This document shows positions 1,532 to 62,322 of a stretch of 64,000 nt of DNA, in pieces. Made by a program: the position numbers and the translations under genes. This DNA is from Deltaproteobacteria bacterium GWA2_45_12 (lineage in GTDB: Bacteria > UBA10199): contig MGPH01000028.1 of NCBI GenBank assembly GCA_001797365.1, positions 5,687 through 69,686 on the forward strand. The letters are read 5' to 3'. A model generated the notes under the pieces. It was not told the origin of the DNA and made no database searches. It saw only the letters and a program-made list of their open reading frames with translations. The first letter of the stretch is position 1; each line of letters starts with the position of its first letter.

Positions 1532-1575
1532 AGAAGTTGAATCCTCTGAAAGAGTCTCAAATTTTTCCAATTCAT

Positions 1576-1625
1576 GGTTCGACAGGCTCACCATGTCCAA
1601 TGTATAGCTTATCGAAGGGTTTAAC
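1576..1625. repeat. partial copy of the MITE terminal module (ggttcgacaggctcaccatgtcc) plus cgaaggg tail
   Basis: Matches the reverse complement of the 5' TIR of the elements at 38188 and 62119. Confidence 0.6.
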
Positions 1626-1626
1626 T

Positions 1627-2277
1627 ATGTCATCTTTTCAATCCCAATTCTTGGGACGAATTTCTTATGCCGAAGCTCTTGGGTTAATGCAAGAATTTAA
1701 AGCGAAGCGGCAGAATAACGAAATAGGGGACCAGATTCTCTTTTTGGAACACCAAGCTGTCGTCACCATGGGAAGAAAACCTTCCGAAAAAGATTTATAT
1801 CTTAAGAAAGAAGAGCTTCTTAAAAAAAATATCGATTTTGTCAAAACAGATCGGGGTGGCAAGCTTACTTACCATGGGCCTGGGCAGTTGGTGATTTATT
1901 TTGTTTTTGATATTCAAAAACGGGGATATTCCATTGAAGAGTGGGTTTGGAATGTGGAGGAAGGGGTCAGAAAGTTTTTGAGCGAGAAGGGAGTTGAGTG
2001 TGAGCGGGATGAGGATAATCCGGGGTTGTGGGTGAGGGCGGCTCACGAACCGCCCCTACAAAAAATTTGCTCCGTAGGATTTCATGTTTCTAAAGGGGTG
2101 ACAACCCATGGTGTGGCCCTGAATCTTGATTGTGATCTAACCCCTTTTGGTTATTTTTTACCGTGTGGTGTTGAAGGCAGAGGAATAACCAGTGTTTTAA
2201 AAGAGACAGGGAAAAAATTGTTCTTGGAAGAAGCCGCAAAAGAAATTGAAGGTATTTATCGGGGGTTGTTTACGTAG
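1627..2277 (+). CDS. lipB: lipoyl(octanoyl) transferase LipB
   Basis: RGGKLTYHGPGQLVIY motif and the KICSVG catalytic region are present. Contains the in-frame 25 nt palindromic element at 2036-2060. The stop TAG 2275-2277 lies inside a GTAGGGG repeat. Confidence 0.9.
   Translation: MSSFQSQFLGRISYAEALGLMQEFKAKRQNNEIGDQILFLEHQAVVTMGRKPSEKDLYLKKEELLKKNIDFVKTDRGGKLTYHGPGQLVIYFVFDIQKRGYSIEEWVWNVEEGVRKFLSEKGVECERDEDNPGLWVRAAHEPPLQKICSVGFHVSKGVTTHGVALNLDCDLTPFGYFLPCGVEGRGITSVLKETGKKLFLEEAAKEIEGIYRGLFT
2036..2060. repeat. Family-1 palindromic element gggcggctcacgaaccgcccctaca inside the lipB coding frame
   Basis: Near-identical copy at 45352-45377 (gggcggttcacgaaccgcccctaca). Encodes RAAHEPPLQ between the conserved LWV and KICSVG blocks of LipB. 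Confidence 0.8.
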
Positions 2278-2300
2278 GGGCGCCGCTTGCCGCGCCCCCC
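2274..2300. repeat. Family-1 half-site gtaggggcgccgcttgccgcgcccccc
   Basis: Same arm as at 13103-13126. Overlaps the lipB stop codon. Confidence 0.8.
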
Positions 2301-4585: not shown

Positions 4586-4711
4586 GAGGACTAAAACCCT
4601 CTACCCCCTGTTGTCCCCTCCTTCGACAGGCTCAGGACGGCGCTTACAAAGGGGGACAGAAGAATGAGTGAATCCCCTACAAAGAGGGACAGTTTTTAGT
4701 CTCCCCTCCTT

Positions 4712-4770
4712 TATAAGGAGGGGATTACCCATCATTCTCCCCTCCTTGTTAAGGAGGGGATTAAGGGGAG
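4712..4770. repeat. two tandem perfect palindromes TCCCCTCCTT-n3/4-AAGGAGGGGA
   Basis: Copies at 4712-4734 and 4748-4770. The arms resemble the anti-SD and SD sequences. They lie in the 5' leader of the epimerase gene and at the 3' end of the 4787 gene. Confidence 0.75.
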
Positions 4771-5265: not shown

Positions 5266-6120
5266 TTAGCCGACAATCTTCCCCATCCCCACAATCCCAT
5301 GGCATTTGGAATGTGTGGCAACAATAAATTTCGTAGGGGCGAGGTTTCCTCGCCCAAAACTCTTTTTCAATTTTCTCCATTCCTCCGCAATATTTTTTAA
5401 GGGGATGTAAGCCACGCCGTAAACCAATGCGGTGCAAAAAAAGGTGTGGATAGTTGTAGTTGGACCCTGAGCGGAGTGGGCCCTGAGCGGAGTCGAAGGG
5501 TTGAAGGGTCGCAGAACTTTCTTAAAATGTTCCCGAAAATCCCAAGTGCGTGGGGCTTGGGTGTGGGGGCAAATAGTGGGCTCGTCACAATCTAAGGGAC
5601 AGATCCAAGTTGCAAAACTTGTCGCTACAATTCCGGAATCGAAATTTTTTTGGTAGGGGGTGTTAAGGGATTGATTGTAAGGAATGATTTCTGTTTTAAA
5701 TCCTTCTTTCTCCAAGAGCTCTAAAAAAACCTTAAAAAAAACATGGGGGGCAGTGTGGTCGGGAATGAGGATGTCATTCTCATCAACGGTATAAACCCAA
5801 GGGCAAGCCTTGGAAGATTCTCCGCCTAAGGTGGAGGGTTTTGACCCGGCAAGGCGCGTCCCCGAAGCCAACGAGCGTAGGGGATCAAAACCCTGATTAA
5901 GAATATCGACGATAAATTGGGAATAAGATTTTTTAATGATTTGATTCGGATGTTTTTTTTCTGCCAGGGAATTTGGTTTGTCATCAACAAAGAACAGGGA
6001 TTTGAAATCGATAAGCCCTTCTTTTTTGGCCCTGATTAATTTTTGCCCGTAATCGAGCGAGAGTTTGTGGGTGCCGAGGATGTAAATAGAGTGAAGGGAG
6101 AACATTAGCCATTTCCTCAA
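5266..6120 (-). CDS. hypothetical Cys-containing protein; C-terminal portion is made of repeat-element sequence
   Basis: ORF of 284 aa. Two repeat elements (5333-5355, 5462-5510) fall in-frame in its C-terminal third. Confidence 0.45.
   Translation of the reverse strand: MRKWLMFSLHSIYILGTHKLSLDYGQKLIRAKKEGLIDFKSLFFVDDKPNSLAEKKHPNQIIKKSYSQFIVDILNQGFDPLRSLASGTRLAGSKPSTLGGESSKACPWVYTVDENDILIPDHTAPHVFFKVFLELLEKEGFKTEIIPYNQSLNTPYQKNFDSGIVATSFATWICPLDCDEPTICPHTQAPRTWDFREHFKKVLRPFNPSTPLRAHSAQGPTTTIHTFFCTALVYGVAYIPLKNIAEEWRKLKKSFGRGNLAPTKFIVATHSKCHGIVGMGKIVG
5333..5355. repeat. Family-1 element gtaggggcgaggtttcctcgccc
   Basis: gtaggggcg core with an internal hairpin. Confidence 0.7.
5462..5510. repeat. 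Family-2 tandem unit (ccctgagcggagtgggccctgagcggagtcgaaggg)
   Basis: Direct duplication of the cctgagcgg motif. Confidence 0.75.
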
Positions 6121-12293: not shown

Positions 12294-13100
12294 TCAAGGC
12301 AATTTTTCAGATTTCTCCGTTTTTTTACGGTGCAATACCCAAAAAAGAGGAAGCGCGATCCAGGCAAGATCGGCCAAGGCCAGGAACCATTGGCGAAGGA
12401 AAAGAGTGATCAGCCAATTGAACGCAAAAATTCCGAAATATAAATAAACACCGTAGGGGCGCTGCTTGCTGCGCCCATCATACGGCAAATTGCGGGCGCA
12501 GCAAGCAGCGCCCCTACACAAAAGAATATTTATTCCCACAATCAAGAACGCCGTTAAAAACCAACCGGCAAAATTGAAGAAGGGGATGCCAAAATAAAAA
12601 CCGGGATGGGGGTAGTGGTAAATCTTTCCCAAAAACCATTGTTCTCCCATGTTGGATAAAGGATCGACAATGATATCGAGAATGGTGGTGAAAAGGGCGG
12701 CGAGGAGGGGAAGACGTAGCTCGTGAGTTCGTAAGCTCGTCGCTCGTCGCTCGTCATTCGGGGTCCCCGTATTACGAGCAACGAGCAACGAGCGACGAGC
12801 AACGAACTCCGCCACACTATACCCCGCAAAACAAAGAAAGACATAAGACATCGAATCCCAAACGGGGACACCCCAATTAAGCCATTCCCCTTGAAGGTTT
12901 TCATAAATATAAAAATACCATCCATAGGGAAAACCGGTTCGAATCGAAAGCCCTTCAGAAATCCATGCGATGAAATAACCGACAATCAAAAACTGAAACG
13001 TAAAACGCCACCCGTGACTGCGTATGGCAATGAAAAGATAAGTGAGTAAAAAAAGAGTGACATACCACCGGTGCGAGAATGTGTAGAAAAGAATATCCAT
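12294..13100 (-). CDS. polytopic membrane protein (DUF422/carotenoid-associated-like?) carrying two in-frame palindromic insertions
   Basis: Multiple TM helices on both sides of the insertions. The insertions encode VAEFVARRSLLVARNTGTPNDERRATSLRTHELR and [25 protein letters not shown]. Confidence 0.55.
   Translation of the reverse strand: MDILFYTFSHRWYVTLFLLTYLFIAIRSHGWRFTFQFLIVGYFIAWISEGLSIRTGFPYGWYFYIYENLQGEWLNWGVPVWDSMSYVFLCFAGYSVAEFVARRSLLVARNTGTPNDERRATSLRTHELRLPLLAALFTTILDIIVDPLSNMGEQWFLGKIYHYPHPGFYFGIPFFNFAGWFLTAFLIVGINILLCRGAACCARNLPYDGRSKQRPYGVYLYFGIFAFNWLITLFLRQWFLALADLAWIALPLFWVLHRKKTEKSEKLP
12453..12517. repeat. Family-1 inverted pair gtaggggcgctgcttgctgcgccc ... gggcgcagcaagcagcgcccctac
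   Basis: 24 bp arms around a 17 nt spacer. Lies inside the 12294..13100 coding frame. Confidence 0.85.
12725..12808. repeat. long imperfect palindrome centred on ggggtcccc with gctcgtc/gacgagc heptad arms
   Basis: Sequence gctcgtcgctcgtcgctcgtcattcggggtccccgtattacgagcaacgagcaacgagcgacgagc. Lies in-frame in the membrane protein. Confidence 0.75.
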
Positions 13101-13102
13101 TT

Positions 13103-13168
13103 TGTAGGGGCGCCGCTTGCCGCGCCCATTATTGGAAAAACATTAGGGCGCGGCAAGCAGCGCCCCTA
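13103..13168. repeat. Family-1 inverted pair gtaggggcgccgcttgccgcgccc ... gggcgcggcaagcagcgcccctac
   Basis: Lies between the membrane protein start and the epimerase 3' end. Supplies the last 8 codons and the stop of the epimerase. Confidence 0.85.
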
Positions 13169-14162
13169 CGGTATATTGTTTCACCTGAATTTTTAGGGCC
13201 TCATCAATGGAATGACAGGAAAACCCCAATTCGTTTTTAGCCTTGGTGGTATCCATATAAAAAGGAATCCTGACAGAACGTATTCCTTCAAGAGTTCCCA
13301 AGGGAGTGTTGCCGGTAAATAAAGCCAGTTTTTCCATAAGTCCACTTGTAAGGCAGGCCAACCCATACGGAATTTTAAAACCCAATCTGGCTTGATGGGA
13401 ATTGGCCGCCACTTTCTTGTAAAAGATTTCAAAGCTTAGATTGGGGCCCCCCAAGATATACCGATGGCCCCTTAACCCGTCTTGCATGGCTTGAAGATGA
13501 CCTTTCACCAAGCTGCGCACATCCACCATGTTAAACCCGGTGGGGTAATAAAAACGCCCCATTTTTTTTTGAAGAATCATCCGGATGAGAAATCCCACAG
13601 GGCTTGGCAAAAAATCTCCGGGGCCCACGGGCATGGTGGGGTTTACAATGACGGCATGACGTTTCTGGGCATATTCCAAAACTATTTTTTCTGCGGCAAT
13701 TTTGCTTCGGGTATAAGGGCCGGGAGCATTGCTTTCTTCCAGAAGATGGTTTTCGGAAGCAGTGGGGTTTTGGTTGGTTCTTTTCAGAACTTCAGAAGAG
13801 CTTGTATGAACCAAGCCTTCAACATGATGTTTTAAGCAGGCATCACAGACATGTTGGGTCCCCTTGATGTTGATTTCTTCATGGTCTTTTCTTCGTTTTG
13901 TCCCCAAATGACTCAAGGCTGCCAAATGAAAAACATGGGAGGCTCCGGAAACAGCCTTGGACACATCGTTTTTGTTTCGAATGTCCCCCAAAAAAATTTC
14001 CAGACGATTACTTGCCAAAATAGGGTTTCCATTTTCAGGGTGGCGTAAAGGATCCGAGGGCAACATAAAAGCCCTAATGCGACTTTGGGTTGATTTGAGA
14101 AGATGAAGAATGAGATTGGAGCCGATAAAACCGCTGGCCCCCGTGACAAGGATGAGTTTCAT
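13143..14162 (-). CDS. NAD-dependent epimerase/dehydratase (3-beta-HSD / HpnA-like sugar epimerase family)
   Basis: MKLILVTGASGFIGSNLILHLL Rossmann start and the YxxxK region. Start ATG 14160-14162 overlaps the upstream stop (ATGA coupling). Confidence 0.8.
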   Translation of the reverse strand: MKLILVTGASGFIGSNLILHLLKSTQSRIRAFMLPSDPLRHPENGNPILASNRLEIFLGDIRNKNDVSKAVSGASHVFHLAALSHLGTKRRKDHEEINIKGTQHVCDACLKHHVEGLVHTSSSEVLKRTNQNPTASENHLLEESNAPGPYTRSKIAAEKIVLEYAQKRHAVIVNPTMPVGPGDFLPSPVGFLIRMILQKKMGRFYYPTGFNMVDVRSLVKGHLQAMQDGLRGHRYILGGPNLSFEIFYKKVAANSHQARLGFKIPYGLACLTSGLMEKLALFTGNTPLGTLEGIRSVRIPFYMDTTKAKNELGFSCHSIDEALKIQVKQYTVGALLAAP

Positions 14163-15187
14163 GATTTTTCTTCTTCGTAGCTGGCACGGATCATCTTGAT
14201 GAAAACCTGAAGAAGGGCCGGGTCCCACTGTCCCGAGCTTAATTCTCTTTCAAAGATGGCGGCTGATTGAATGGGAGAAATGCCCTTGCGATAGGGGCGG
14301 TTGGAGGTCATGGCGTCAAAGGCATCGGTAATGGCACAAATGCGGGCGCCCAGAAAAATCTCTTCGCCTTTTTGGCCGTCAGGGTCTCCCTTGCCATCCC
14401 AACGTTCATGGTGGTTGCGAATGATGGGAAGCAGGGTTTTAAATGATTTGAGATTTTTGCAGATTTCGTAGCCGCGGGTGGGGTGTGTGCGGATATGCGC
14501 AATTTCTTCCTGGGTCAGTTTGGTTTCTTTATTCAGGATGGCTTCCTTGACTCCCACTTTTCCGATATCGTGCAATAAGGCACCGCGTTTTAAGTCTTCC
14601 AACTCTTGTTCGGCCAAGCCCAGTTGTTTCCCCAAGAGGACGGAATATTTTGAAACGCGTTCCGAATGGCCGCGCGTATACACATCTTTGGCTTCCAAAG
14701 CGTCTGCCAATGTAAAAACAACCGACTCGCAACTATCCAGTTCATTATAAAGTTGCTTTACACGAATAAGCGACTTAACCCGGCTGATGAGTTCCAGCTT
14801 GTTATAGGGTTTCATCAAAAAATCATCCGAACCAAGTTCAATGGCCTTGATTTTGTCATCAATTTCCTTGAGGGCTGTCACAATAATGATGGGGATAAAT
14901 TGGGTTTCGGGGTTACTTTTCAGAAGCCGGCATACCTCATAGCCGCTCATGCGCGGCATCATTAAATCCAATAGAATTATGTCGGGAGGATCTTTTTTGA
15001 CACATTCCAAGGCATCTTCCCCGCCATAGCACTTGGTGATGGCATAGTTAAAAGGTTTAAGCTGCACGGAGATAAGTTCAACATTGGTGGGATTATCGTC
15101 CACAACCAGCACTTTGGGCCGATTATCTGTTGATTTATTAAGGAGGGGAACATCGATGCTGGCAGGGTTTTGCATAAGTTCAGGCAT
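14159..15187 (-). CDS. response regulator with HD-GYP-type phosphohydrolase domain
   Basis: N-terminal receiver (VLVVDDNPTNVEL.., DLMMP). C-terminal HD domain (HDIGKVGV; HHERWDGKGDPDG). Confidence 0.85.
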   Translation of the reverse strand: MPELMQNPASIDVPLLNKSTDNRPKVLVVDDNPTNVELISVQLKPFNYAITKCYGGEDALECVKKDPPDIILLDLMMPRMSGYEVCRLLKSNPETQFIPIIIVTALKEIDDKIKAIELGSDDFLMKPYNKLELISRVKSLIRVKQLYNELDSCESVVFTLADALEAKDVYTRGHSERVSKYSVLLGKQLGLAEQELEDLKRGALLHDIGKVGVKEAILNKETKLTQEEIAHIRTHPTRGYEICKNLKSFKTLLPIIRNHHERWDGKGDPDGQKGEEIFLGARICAITDAFDAMTSNRPYRKGISPIQSAAIFERELSSGQWDPALLQVFIKMIRASYEEEKS

Positions 15188-16326: not shown

Positions 16327-16363
16327 CTATTAATGACAGATCCGGGAACAAATCCCCCTTAAT

Positions 16364-16425
16364 CCCCCTTTTTTAAAGGGGGAGAAAACATGGGGCCCGT
16401 ATCGTCCCCCTTTAAAAAAGGGGGA
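16364..16425. repeat. pair of C5-T/A-G5 hairpins (ccccctttttt aaaggggg; tcccccttt aaaaaaggggga)
   Basis: Mirror arrangement between the EF-hand gene and tRNA-Pro. Confidence 0.5.
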
Positions 16426-16520
16426 TTCCAGGGGGATTTTACCCGAATCCATACCTTTTGCTTGACGAAAGAGAGCCTCATCCGTTATCTGTTTCCCCCC
16501 TTTGTTTTTGATTTTTTTTG

Positions 16521-16595
16521 CGGGGCGTAGCGCAGCCCGGCTAGCGCACTCCCTTGGGGTGGGAGTGGTCGCAGGTTCAAATCCTGTCGCCCCGA
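16521..16595 (+). tRNA. tRNA-Pro(GGG): tRNA-Pro (anticodon GGG)
   Basis: Acceptor stem CGGGGCG/CGCCCCG, anticodon stem CTCCC/GGGAG with loop TTGGGGT, and a TTCAAAT T-loop. No encoded CCA. Confidence 0.85.
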
Positions 16596-16600
16596 CATTT

Positions 16601-16676
16601 GAGTGGTCGTCCGCCGAAGGCGGATCGCCCCGACATTTGAGTGGTCGTCCGCCGAAGGCGGATCGCCCCGACATTT
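16601..16676 (+). repeat. two tandem 38-nt degenerate copies of the tRNA-Pro 3' half
   Basis: Unit gagtggtcgtccgccgaaggcggatcgccccgacattt. It matches tRNA 16563-16600 except that the T-arm (caggttcaaatcctg) is replaced by the hairpin tccgccgaaggcgga. Confidence 0.85.
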
Positions 16677-24902: not shown

Positions 24903-24968
24903 GGTCCCTGAGCGAAGTGGTCCCCGAGCGGAGTCGAGGGGTCGAAGGGACACCTCGACTCCGCTCGG
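24903..24968. repeat. Family-2 repeat between etfB and etfA
   Basis: Sequence ggtccctgagcgaagtggtccccgagcggagtcgaggggtcgaagggacacctcgactccgctcgg. Confidence 0.8.
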
Positions 24969-24994
24969 TGACCACCCCTAAAGAGGAGAAAATC

Positions 24995-26925: not shown

Positions 26926-27000
26926 GTAGGGGCGAACCTTGCCTGCCCGCCTCAGGAGGGTATTCGCCCTGAAATGGGCGATCACAAGGATCGCCCCTAC
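26926..27000. repeat. Family-1 MITE-like element with 10 bp TIR (gtaggggcga / tcgcccctac)
   Basis: Lies between xerC and hslV. Confidence 0.75.
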
Positions 27001-28983: not shown

Positions 28984-28989
28984 ATGTTT

Positions 28990-29050
28990 GGTCCCCAAGC
29001 GAAGTGGTCCCCGAGCGGAGTCGAGGGGTCGAAGGGCCATCTCGACTCCG
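28990..29050. repeat. Family-2 repeat immediately 5' of argB
   Basis: Near-identical to 24903-24968. Confidence 0.8.
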
Positions 29051-29089
29051 TTTGGTACCCGTTCATCGATTAGATTTACGGAGAAAATA

Positions 29090-31344: not shown

Positions 31345-32235
31345 ATGAAACATTGTCTTACATTAAAAAATTTGGGGGCCGAAACCATTTTATCCATTTT
31401 GGATAGAGCCCTTTATTTCAAAAAAAATCGTCAGCCACTGACTCTTTTAAATGGGAAGGTGTTGGGACTTATCTTTGAAAAAGAATCAACGCGTACGCGT
31501 ATTTCATTTGAGGTAGCCATGGGAAGGCTGGGGGGCACCAGTATTTATCTCAGCCAGTCTTCAAGCCAGATTTCCCGTGGGGAAACCTATGCGGATACCG
31601 CCCGGGTTTTATCGCGTTATCTGGATGCCCTTGTTTTGCGTGCTTATTCCCAGGCCGATCTGGAAGAATTGGCAAGCCATGCTTCCATTCCTGTGATTAA
31701 TGGATTAACCGATGACGCCCATCCTTGTCAGGTGCTTGCCGATCTTATGACCATCCTGGAGAAAAAAGGGAAATGGGATGATTTGAAAATCGCCTACATT
31801 GGTGATGGCAACAATATGACAAACACCTGGATTGAAGCGGCCCTGTTATTGAATTTTAATCTTCACGTGGCCTGTCCCAAGGGATATGGGCCTTCCAAAG
31901 AACTTGTTTCTAGTGTTAAAGGAATTGAGTCCATTGGATTAACATCTAAACCGCTTGAGGCGGTGGCTCATGCCGATGTAATCAATACGGACACTTGGTT
32001 TTCAATGGGGCAAAAGGTTTCCCAGGCAAAAAGAAAAAAATTCAAGGGGTTTCAGATCAACCGGGCCCTGCTTCAAAAAGCGAGTCCCGATGTCATTGTG
32101 CTTCACTGCCTGCCGGCCCATCGCGGAGAAGAAATAACTGATGAGGTTTTAGATGGCCCCCATTCTGTGGTTTTTGATGAGGCGGAAAACAGGCTGTATG
32201 TGCAAATGGCTTTGTTGGAATATTTGTTAACGTAG
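31345..32235 (+). CDS. argF: ornithine carbamoyltransferase
   Basis: STRTRISFE and HCLP motifs. The stop TAG is again inside a gTAGggg repeat. Confidence 0.9.
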
Positions 32236-32255
32236 GGGCGCTGCTTGCTGCGCCC
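32233..32255. repeat. Family-1 half-site gtaggggcgctgcttgctgcgccc
   Basis: Identical to the arm at 12453-12476. Confidence 0.8.
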
Positions 32256-45329: not shown

Positions 45330-45351
45330 GCATACCTCGTGTACCCGTGTA

Positions 45352-45377
45352 AGGGCGGTTCACGAACCGCCCCTACA
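45352..45377. repeat. Family-1 element gggcggttcacgaaccgcccctaca
   Basis: Same element as inside lipB. Its 3' end abuts the ATG at 45377. Confidence 0.8.
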
Positions 45378-45991
45378 TGGGGCACTCGCCATTTATTATG
45401 GAAGACATCCCCCAATCATCTGAGAGCATGAAAGATATTCTGGATATCGAGAATATTGTCCTGTTTTTATGGCCAAAAGTGCTGCTCTTTGTATTTGGAA
45501 TTCTGGCTCTGCTTCTTTCTATTTTTTTAATCATAAAGATTTTTCAATTTTTAAAAAACCGCAAAAAAAAAATCCTCTCCCTTTCACCCTTGGAACAATC
45601 TTTAAAAAGACTTTCCAAAATTGGCATTAATTTGCTGATTAACTCCCCCCAACCCCCTCTTAAGCTAAGAGGGGGCAAGGGGGAGTTATGTCACTCTGTA
45701 TATTTTGAGCTGTCTGAAATTTTACGAGAATACCTTGATCGGGCTTATTCATTTCCTGCCATGGAAAAATCAACGAGCGAAATCAAAGAATTGTTTATAA
45801 CAAACAAGCCCATCGCGCTATCAAATGAAATCATTGGTGAGCTCGTTTCATTTTTCGAAAAGGCAGACCAAATAAAATTTGCAGGCCAACCCAGTGACAA
45901 TGAAGGTATTAAGGTGGATATGGAAAAAATTAAAAATATAATCATTTGTCTGGATGGCTTATTAAAAAAAGACATTTCCAAACATTCATGA
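45377..45991 (+). CDS. DUF4381-like membrane protein of the Bat operon (true start possibly 45398)
   Basis: N-terminal TM helix. Occupies the position between DUF58 and BatA. Contains an in-frame repeat at 45650-45683. Confidence 0.5.
   Translation: MGHSPFIMEDIPQSSESMKDILDIENIVLFLWPKVLLFVFGILALLLSIFLIIKIFQFLKNRKKKILSLSPLEQSLKRLSKIGINLLINSPQPPLKLRGGKGELCHSVYFELSEILREYLDRAYSFPAMEKSTSEIKELFITNKPIALSNEIIGELVSFFEKADQIKFAGQPSDNEGIKVDMEKIKNIIICLDGLLKKDISKHS
45650..45683. repeat. hairpin element aaccccctcttaagctaagagggggcaaggggg (inside coding frame)
   Basis: Intergenic copy at 54724-54757. Confidence 0.75.
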
Positions 45992-54707: not shown

Positions 54708-54723
54708 ATAGAATAAGTCCCCC

Positions 54724-54757
54724 TAACCCCCTCTTACAGCTAAGAGGGGGCGACGGG
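54724..54757. repeat. hairpin element taaccccctcttacagctaagagggggcgacggg (terminator-like, no T-run)
   Basis: Copy of the 45650-45683 element. Located 3' of the 52479 gene. Confidence 0.7.
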
Positions 54758-58675: not shown

Positions 58676-58747
58676 TTTAATCAACAAGAACAAAAACTTG
58701 ATCCGTTTTTTATTTTTGCCCCTGGGGGCAGAAATAAAAAACGGATC

Positions 58748-58792
58748 AACCCTGAGCGATCCGCTGCGGAGAGTCGAAGGGTCGCTCAGGAT
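58748..58792. repeat. Family-2 repeat aaccctgagcgatccgctgcggagagtcgaagggtcgctcaggat
   Basis: Lies upstream of the glnE start. Confidence 0.8.
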
Positions 58793-62269: not shown

Positions 62270-62322
62270 TATATTATGTAAACTTAGGCCTGTCTTAAAA
62301 CAGCCTAAGTTTACATAATATA
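62270..62322 (+). promoter_or_regulatory. perfect 20 bp stem hairpin (attatattatgtaaacttaggc ... gcctaagtttacataatat) upstream of shc
   Basis: Lies between the radical SAM gene and the shc start at 62355. Confidence 0.5.

Follow-up and report, generated by a model that had tools for sequence, protein, structure and literature searches.

How can a single gene for a polytopic membrane protein contain two long palindromic repeats, unrelated to each other, and still be read from end to end? This question is raised by a 64,000-nucleotide stretch of Deltaproteobacteria bacterium GWA2_45_12, a metagenome-assembled genome (MAG) (GenBank contig MGPH01000028.1, positions 5,687 to 69,686; the window hereafter). 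In the window, the open reading frame (ORF) of a protein of the Pfam family PF04240 holds an inverted pair of repetitive extragenic palindromic (REP) units, here element 1, and a hairpin with arms of tandem 7-nucleotide units, here element 2 (Table 1). The original prediction, made from the letters of the window alone, had described palindromes at 12453-12517 and 12725-12808 that keep the frame of one gene open, and our analysis confirmed both of them as well as the open frame. We think it very probable that the gene is intact and that two permissive loops of its product, which we call loops A and B, each took up a hairpin repeat, of a different family in each case, and that both repeats are translated. 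The insertion events are inferred, not observed.

The evidence that this is one gene, as predicted, and not three genes or a pseudogene comes from the protein itself. It matches the PF04240 profile in a single co-linear stretch over residues 13-248 (E 3.6e-23; 83 bits, the cut-off being 25), and in an alignment of 34 sequences, the host protein included, it keeps all 44 invariant columns together with the nearly invariant residues. The family motifs GFPYGxY...GVPxxDS and WFLG...YPxPGxYF..NFxGW are retained. AlphaFold, with the same alignment as input, modelled the protein with seven long helices at a mean predicted local distance difference test score (pLDDT) of 91 and a predicted template modelling score (pTM) of 0.89. 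The host protein scored about 50 bits against the NCBIfam CruF models, whose equivalog cut-offs are 155-400; by its domain match we therefore call it CruF-like, and do not assign it as CruF (carotenoid 1',2'-hydratase). Its sequence is identical to that of the public entries OGP09399.1 and HBF12927.1, both labelled 'Deltaproteobacteria bacterium GWA2_45_12'. From these features, the host protein is presumably made and functional.

Element 1 lies in loop B, and its two arms (12453-12476 and 12494-12517) are complementary over all 24 nt, the arm length that had been predicted, one arm reading GTAGGGGCGCTGCTTGCTGCGCCC and the other its reverse complement. Written for counting as GTAGGGGCGCYGCTTGCYGCGCCC, the unit of this family occurs six times at four loci in the window, and dinucleotide shuffles gave 0 matches. 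All six units are headed by GTAG, and C-G-T-A-G is invariant in a five-sequence alignment. The head is followed by GGGCGC-TGCTTGCT-GCGCCC, which forms a perfect 6-bp stem or, if one mismatch is allowed, a stem of 9 bp that closes on a TT loop; the range used to test for REP palindromes was a stem of 5-13 bp and a loop of 2-20 nt (PMC3733652, Table 1). By tag, palindrome, multiple copies and inverted-doublet arrangement, all read from the sequence, element 1 is a GTAG-type REP doublet. It encodes residues ~195-216, between helices H174-197 and H216-234 (RGAACCA...GRSKQRPY), and as coding-strand RNA it folds at -58.5 kcal/mol (z -8.5). Three of the four loci of the family (2274, 32232 and 13104-13169) are intergenic or at gene ends, and the doublet at the last of these aligns with the intragenic copy and has the flanks ACC...AAAA in common with it. 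Two groups of look-alikes were rejected. Matches to GTAGGGGCGC in the contigs L031 and L042 are due to chance in GC-rich coding DNA, the L031 match encoding the family 'RPYVF' motif, and Rfam microRNA precursors that resembled the intergenic REP hairpin were sub-threshold, generic hairpin matches (31 bits, where the gathering score is 111).

Element 2, in loop A, ends one nucleotide beyond its predicted boundary and is built of the GCTCGTC heptads that were foreseen, with ACGAGCR heptads opposite them; the arms can be drawn at 12735-12754 and 12781-12800 (20 nt, 95%) or at 12734-12754 and 12788-12808 (21 nt, 90%). On the plus strand, three GCTCGTC units and 4.6 ACGAGCR units surround ...GGGGTCCCC..., with the centre ATTCGGGGTCCCCGTATT, and the coding strand reads GAGTTCGT-(TGCTCGY)n-AAUACGGGGACCCCGAAUG-(ACGAGCG)n-TT-ACGAACTC. 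The element encodes residues ~98-126 (EFVARRSLLVARNTGTPNDERRATSLRTH), and its coding-strand RNA folds at -63.7 kcal/mol (z -9.6) into a stem of ~30 bp with a centre of ~19 nt. The arm pattern had 0 matches in dinucleotide shuffles. As 7 cannot be divided by 3, the arms are read as 7-residue repeats, ARRS(S/L)LV and DERRATS, and the GCTCGTY unit contains a stop codon in none of the six frames. We rejected an identity with CGTC-tagged REPs, which have a stem of 8-9 bp, a loop of 4-5 nt, a terminal CGTC and a 3-nt tail (PMC3733652): CGTC does occur inside the heptad unit, but the long stem and wide centre of element 2 do not fit.

Table 1. Coordinates, within the window, of the host gene, its repeats and the features discussed with them.
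Feature	Coordinates	Strand	Description
CruF-like polytopic membrane protein gene (host gene)	12294..13100	minus	Pfam PF04240 Caroten_synth; 268 aa, ATG start
Element 1, intragenic REP doublet (REPIN-like), loop B	12453..12517		two inverted 24-nt units GTAG-GGGCGCTGCTTGCTGCGCCC, 17-nt spacer
Element 2, intragenic heptad-armed hairpin, loop A	12725..12809		85 nt, tandem GCTCGTY heptad arms
Second REP doublet, opposite orientation	13104..13169		24-nt arms 96% complementary; -58.1 kcal/mol, z -9.9
Single REP unit	2274..2297	+	ORF 1537..2277 (lipoyl ligase-like) has its stop codon in the TAG of the GTAG head
Single REP unit	32232..32255	+	24/24 identical to intragenic arm; ORF 31345..32235 (ornithine carbamoyltransferase) has its stop codon in the TAG of the GTAG head
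HpnA-like NAD-dependent epimerase gene, upstream of host gene	13143..14228	minus	TIGR03466 HpnA 237 bits, under cut-off 368

The comparison with homologues sets these two segments apart. The best homologues, found in a search of 5.8 billion proteins, are 50-57% identical over the whole protein, and the best match among genome contigs (L030) reaches 64% identity over one segment only. Both repeat-encoded segments are missing from every homologue compared in the 34-sequence alignment, in agreement with the original prediction, and both map to the only two length-variable regions of that alignment. Orthologs had been expected to be about 55 residues shorter, which proved too high, the shortest homologues (228 aa) having 40 fewer. 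Counted between conserved anchors in 89 homologues, loop A has 52 residues in the host protein and a median of 39 in the homologues (minimum 29, maximum 85), loop B has 39 against a median of 35 (26 to 107), and the total length is 268 against a median of 252 (228 to 301). Furthermore, the loop regions of the host gene have folding z-scores of -6.8 and -10.0, compared to mostly |z|<2 in 38 homologue genes.

Repeats of other kinds occupy the same loops elsewhere. Heptad hairpins are found in loop A of contigs L012 (GAGACAC.../GTCTCGN) and L017 ((GGGATCA)4...(TGTTCCC)4), one-sided heptad arrays in loop B of L019, L033 and L060, and heptad arrays in both loops of L030. Loop A of L060 holds a CCCCC/GGGGG palindrome like that at window 16339-16449 (z -6.0), other REP-like hairpins occur in L016 (loop A), L027 (loop B) and L061 (both loops), and L059 has a composite loop A of 78 aa. 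Several of the other heptad units in homologues carry a stop codon on one or both strands. Six of the eight long inverted repeats in the 38 homologue genes fall within loops A and B, which account for 29% of the bases surveyed (binomial p ~0.01). When the loops of 120 homologue proteins were screened for a period of 7 residues, only P0010 scored, so that a screen at the protein level is too insensitive. Taken together, and as judged from these alignments, loops A and B are hypervariable hot spots of tolerance that are filled by unrelated repeats in other lineages.

Both segments had also been predicted to lack membrane-protein character. They do encode the two deepest hydropathy minima of the host protein and are thus its most hydrophilic stretches, but the conserved loops 56-79 and 151-173 are likewise non-hydrophobic, so that this character does not single the inserts out. 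In the AlphaFold model, the heptad insert lengthens an antiparallel pair of helices (H80-110 and H117-150), with NTGTPN as the turn at the centre of the palindrome (pLDDT 82-88), and the REP insert appears as a loop with a pLDDT of ~55 (block 201-210). By helix count, the face that bears the inserts is rich in lysine and arginine (2 in loop 27-33, 6 in the heptad insert, 5 in the REP insert and 5 at the C-terminus), and the opposite face has 0 in motif loop 56-79 and 1 in motif loop 151-173. This distribution and the positive-inside rule suggest that both inserts are probably in predicted cytoplasmic loops and that the opposite face is likely the active one. No solved structure was found for the PF04240 family.

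These results are consistent with the following course of events. A GTAG-type REP doublet, from a family that is otherwise intergenic here, would have entered loop B, mobilised by a REP-associated tyrosine transposase (RAYT) presumably encoded elsewhere in the genome; RAYTs are usually single-copy. A REP-like heptad hairpin, stop-free in six frames, would have entered loop A. Both copies would have landed, or survived, in a phase and at a length that keep the frame, and would be translated to Arg-rich peptides, one of them a floppy loop and the other a helical-hairpin extension that faces away from the conserved motifs. Lying opposite these motifs, the inserts would disturb neither the enzyme core nor the membrane topology. 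The hairpins in the mRNA are strong (-58 and -64 kcal/mol), and this is probably a burden that is tolerated and not a function.

Several observations weigh against colonisation by two mobile repeats. A close relative with an empty site was sought in the 5.8-billion-protein search and in genome contigs and none was found, and no target-site duplication was demonstrable. Without its 22 REP-encoded residues, loop B would have 17, compared to the homologue minimum of 26, which does not fit a simple insertion; native loop sequence would have given way to the REP doublet, or would have been deleted later. The scan of 30 window ORFs gave no match to a RAYT (PF01797 Y1 transposase). No Shine-Dalgarno sequence is visible upstream of the host-gene ATG, where the second REP doublet abuts, and no second heptad hairpin is present in the window or in the 8 kb past its right end (~72 kb). 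In addition, GAGTTCGT, at the 5' base of the stem, is translated as E-F-V, part of the 'AEFV' that the family conserves, and pairs with the 3' ACGAACTC. Because E-F-V is conserved in homologues, the boundary of the element is ambiguous, and the hairpin may stem from a template switch or microhomology at the site.

Such an origin is spelled out in the alternative that element 2 grew in place, in which the native GAGTTCGTT (E-F-V) would have seeded 7-nt slippage and a replication template switch would have copied the array backwards. The conserved codons at the stem base are what this alternative would lead one to find, and so are the heptad arrays that L019, L033, L030 and L060 carry in these loops with no inverted partner. 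A metagenome scan with the pattern GCTCGTYGCTCGTY-N5-35-ACGAGCRACGAGCR yielded 13 contigs with the same heptad-hairpin architecture and unrelated loops, at GC fractions of 0.45-0.69; most of these need not share ancestry, and those whose centres are unrelated may be of independent origin. The scan also provided evidence that argues for a mobile element. One 95.7-kb contig (L049, GC 0.46) has two intergenic heptad hairpins, at 52-141 and 1092-1221, flanking one gene, and both are 75-81% identical to the window element, including the non-heptad GCTCGYGRGTTCGTAAGCTCGTC and the centre CGGGGWCCCCG. Since these copies match the non-heptad parts as well, the heptad hairpin appears to form a family that is dispersed, among related low-GC genomes at any rate; they are the only evidence for dispersal of this particular family. 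The centres on the other heptad-hairpin contigs are unrelated to that of the window element. Furthermore, the elements of L050 and L055 also end in (G)AGTTCGTC, similar to the stem base of the window element, so the motif may belong to the element and not to the gene. We therefore hold growth in place to be rather unlikely.

A second alternative, which is not exclusive of colonisation, is that the hairpins are functional, either in mRNA stability or translation control, or as an on/off switch driven by heptad slippage. The RNA hairpins are very stable, and a REP doublet covers the translation start region: the second doublet occupies the entire gap between the HpnA-like gene and the host gene and ends 3 nt short of the ATG at 13100. 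The same doublet supplies the end of the HpnA-like ORF (...TVGALLAAP) and its stop codon (13143-13145), which lies in the hairpin spacer, and translational coupling may therefore expose the start of the host gene. The relative L030 (groundwater MAG JACQOY010000222.1, 3237-3330) would offer a precedent for switching, as its gene is split into two frames exactly within the (ACCATCC)n tract of loop A and one more ACCATCC unit would restore the frame; ACCATCC recurs in its loop B, and (GTCACTG)4 lies just upstream of its start codon. However, the L030 gene may truly be a pseudogene, or its frameshift an error of assembly, and no element is the same from one lineage to another, which speaks against regulation as a conserved role. 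Nor is there any hint of variation in heptad number: the length is constant over the 6.8-kb locus in three assemblies (ENA ERZ28564302, ENA ERZ27254745 and NCBI GCA_003501025.1), which are identical to the window and may share reads. We consider a functional role for the hairpins unlikely.

It is very unlikely that the host gene is decaying as a pseudogene and is still open by chance. Two insertions in a gene of 807 nt, the lack of a visible Shine-Dalgarno sequence and the frameshift of L030 would be in keeping with decay, but the retention of the 44 invariant and the nearly invariant residues, the full-length co-linear match, the confident structure model and the confinement of both inserts to the only two hypervariable loops speak against it. 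An assembly artefact, a repeat-induced chimera or mis-join of the kind that short-read metagenome assemblies can produce at repeats, is scarcely credible, because the locus is the same in the three assemblies, the exact protein is found on 7 contigs and conserved protein sequence runs in frame on either side of each insert.

With colonisation of loops A and B as the preferred reading, element 2 leads to a wider proposal. Heptamer repeats are over-represented in bacteria (PMC4692102), and in the literature that we searched heptad-armed hairpins were not described as a group of their own. On three of the other contigs from the metagenome scan, hairpins of the GCTCGTY type are present in frame in genuine genes, those for QueC (L051, 442-502), Mfd/TRCF (L056, 8443-8499) and a zinc-ribbon adenylate cyclase (L057, 1137-1196) of unrelated high-GC metagenome organisms, where they add peptides of the ...SLVARR...RATSDER... 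type. It is conceivable, though we regard it as doubtful, that heptad-armed hairpins (two opposed 7-nt arrays around a short centre) form an undescribed, cross-phylum, REP-like class, of which the GCTCGTY type survives time and again in genes, supplying helical-hairpin or loop modules there, and in which slippage of a single unit can switch a gene off, as the frameshift of L030 would suggest. For the GCTCGTY family, its unit being stop-free, only total length modulo 3 matters. If the proposal were true, the CruF-like loops would be a 'landing pad' that records repeat traffic across lineages that bear the labels Deltaproteobacteria, Nitrospirales/Nitrospirota, Myxococcales and Bdellovibrio.

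The surroundings of the host gene differ from those of CruF. The protein shares with the CruF/PF04240 family an above-gathering Pfam score and both conserved motif loops, but the neighbours of its gene are the HpnA-like epimerase, gltBD and a nearby squalene-hopene cyclase, and not carotenoid genes; the cyclase and the HpnA-like epimerase hint at a hopanoid, not a carotenoid, context. The squalene-hopene cyclase gene begins near the window end (L065/L066, 11348-13327), and between it and a radical-SAM (CofH_C-type) gene is a perfect 20-nt inverted repeat (62270-62322). On the P0003 contig a Caroten_synth gene is followed by gltB, in the same order as in the window, and the loops of P0003 contain repeat-like peptides. 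In L060 and L030, the Caroten_synth gene is preceded by the same response-regulator/HD-GYP gene as in the window, where the HpnA-like epimerase intervenes.

The window contains at least six further palindromic repeat families, at 16339-16449; at 24917-24975, 29011-29055 and 5461-5493; at 45640-45688 and 54720-54757; at 4702-4760; at 26926-27000 (a GTAGGGGCGA family related to that of element 1); at 45344-45381; and at 58698-58749. Those that were compared with flanking domain matches are intergenic or lie in false N-terminal ORF extensions (ETF-alpha at 24917, amino-acid kinase at 28988). Just upstream of recG, a 38-nt unit, GAGTGGTCGCACGCCAAAGCCGGATCGCCCCGACATTT, is present three times in tandem (16563-16676); as these repeats have no spacers, they do not resemble a CRISPR array.

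In-frame REPs and fusions of Rickettsia palindromic elements (RPEs) are already documented, and this locus adds a new example, not a new phenomenon. What it contributes is a host gene for a membrane protein, the presence within its 807 nt of two elements unrelated to each other, and a pair of loops that absorb repeats across lineages; in a groundwater lineage that is uncultured and lies outside Rickettsia, it is a doubly hit case of repeats turned into protein sequence. The repeat-absorbing loops map, by natural example, where the fold is permissive, and heptad-armed hairpins appear to be under-described, widespread and able to shift reading frames. For annotators the locus is a warning that loops of MAG proteins may be translated selfish DNA, and that REP units may supply stop codons or false C-termini.

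Among known systems, the closest to element 1 are the GTAG REPs and REPINs, which are likewise marked by a GTAG head, a short imperfect palindrome, singletons together with inverted doublets, and a location mostly 3' of genes. REPINs have been described as inverted REP doublets that fold to a long hairpin (Bertels & Rainey 2011, PMC3116915), and intragenic GTAG and CGTC REPs as mostly dimers that encode 20-30 aa, at times two per ORF (Di Nocera et al. 2013, PMC3733652). Element 1 was placed among them by tag and palindrome, and not by sequence comparison with the 24 described GTAG families; its host gene is not one for DNA repair but encodes a membrane protein, in a 'Deltaproteobacteria' MAG from uncultured groundwater bacteria. 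The RPEs (Ogata et al. 2000, as cited in PMC10969869 and PMC3733652) are in-frame palindromic repeats in functional genes, translated with the fold undisturbed, and their in-frame fusions in Rickettsia have been reviewed (PMC10969869). The original prediction of an RPE-like in-frame colonisation is right as an analogy, since the repeat families recur elsewhere and the likeness, that of in-frame insertion at a structurally permissive site of an intact gene, is one of behaviour; it does not extend to membership. RPEs are ~100-150 bp, CGTC-tagged (RPE-4/6) or unrelated, and confined to Rickettsia, whereas the elements here are 65 and 85 bp and element 1 carries the GTAG tag of a REP doublet; they are set apart from RPEs by this description. 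Element 2 resembles the described dispersed arrays of 7-nt repeats, in which tandem heptamers lie both between and inside genes and three units (21 nt) keep the frame. Those arrays are mostly one-sided and have been discussed as regulatory or G-quadruplex sequences, whereas element 2 has opposed arrays that form a hairpin of 30+ bp, with a conserved centre and six open frames.

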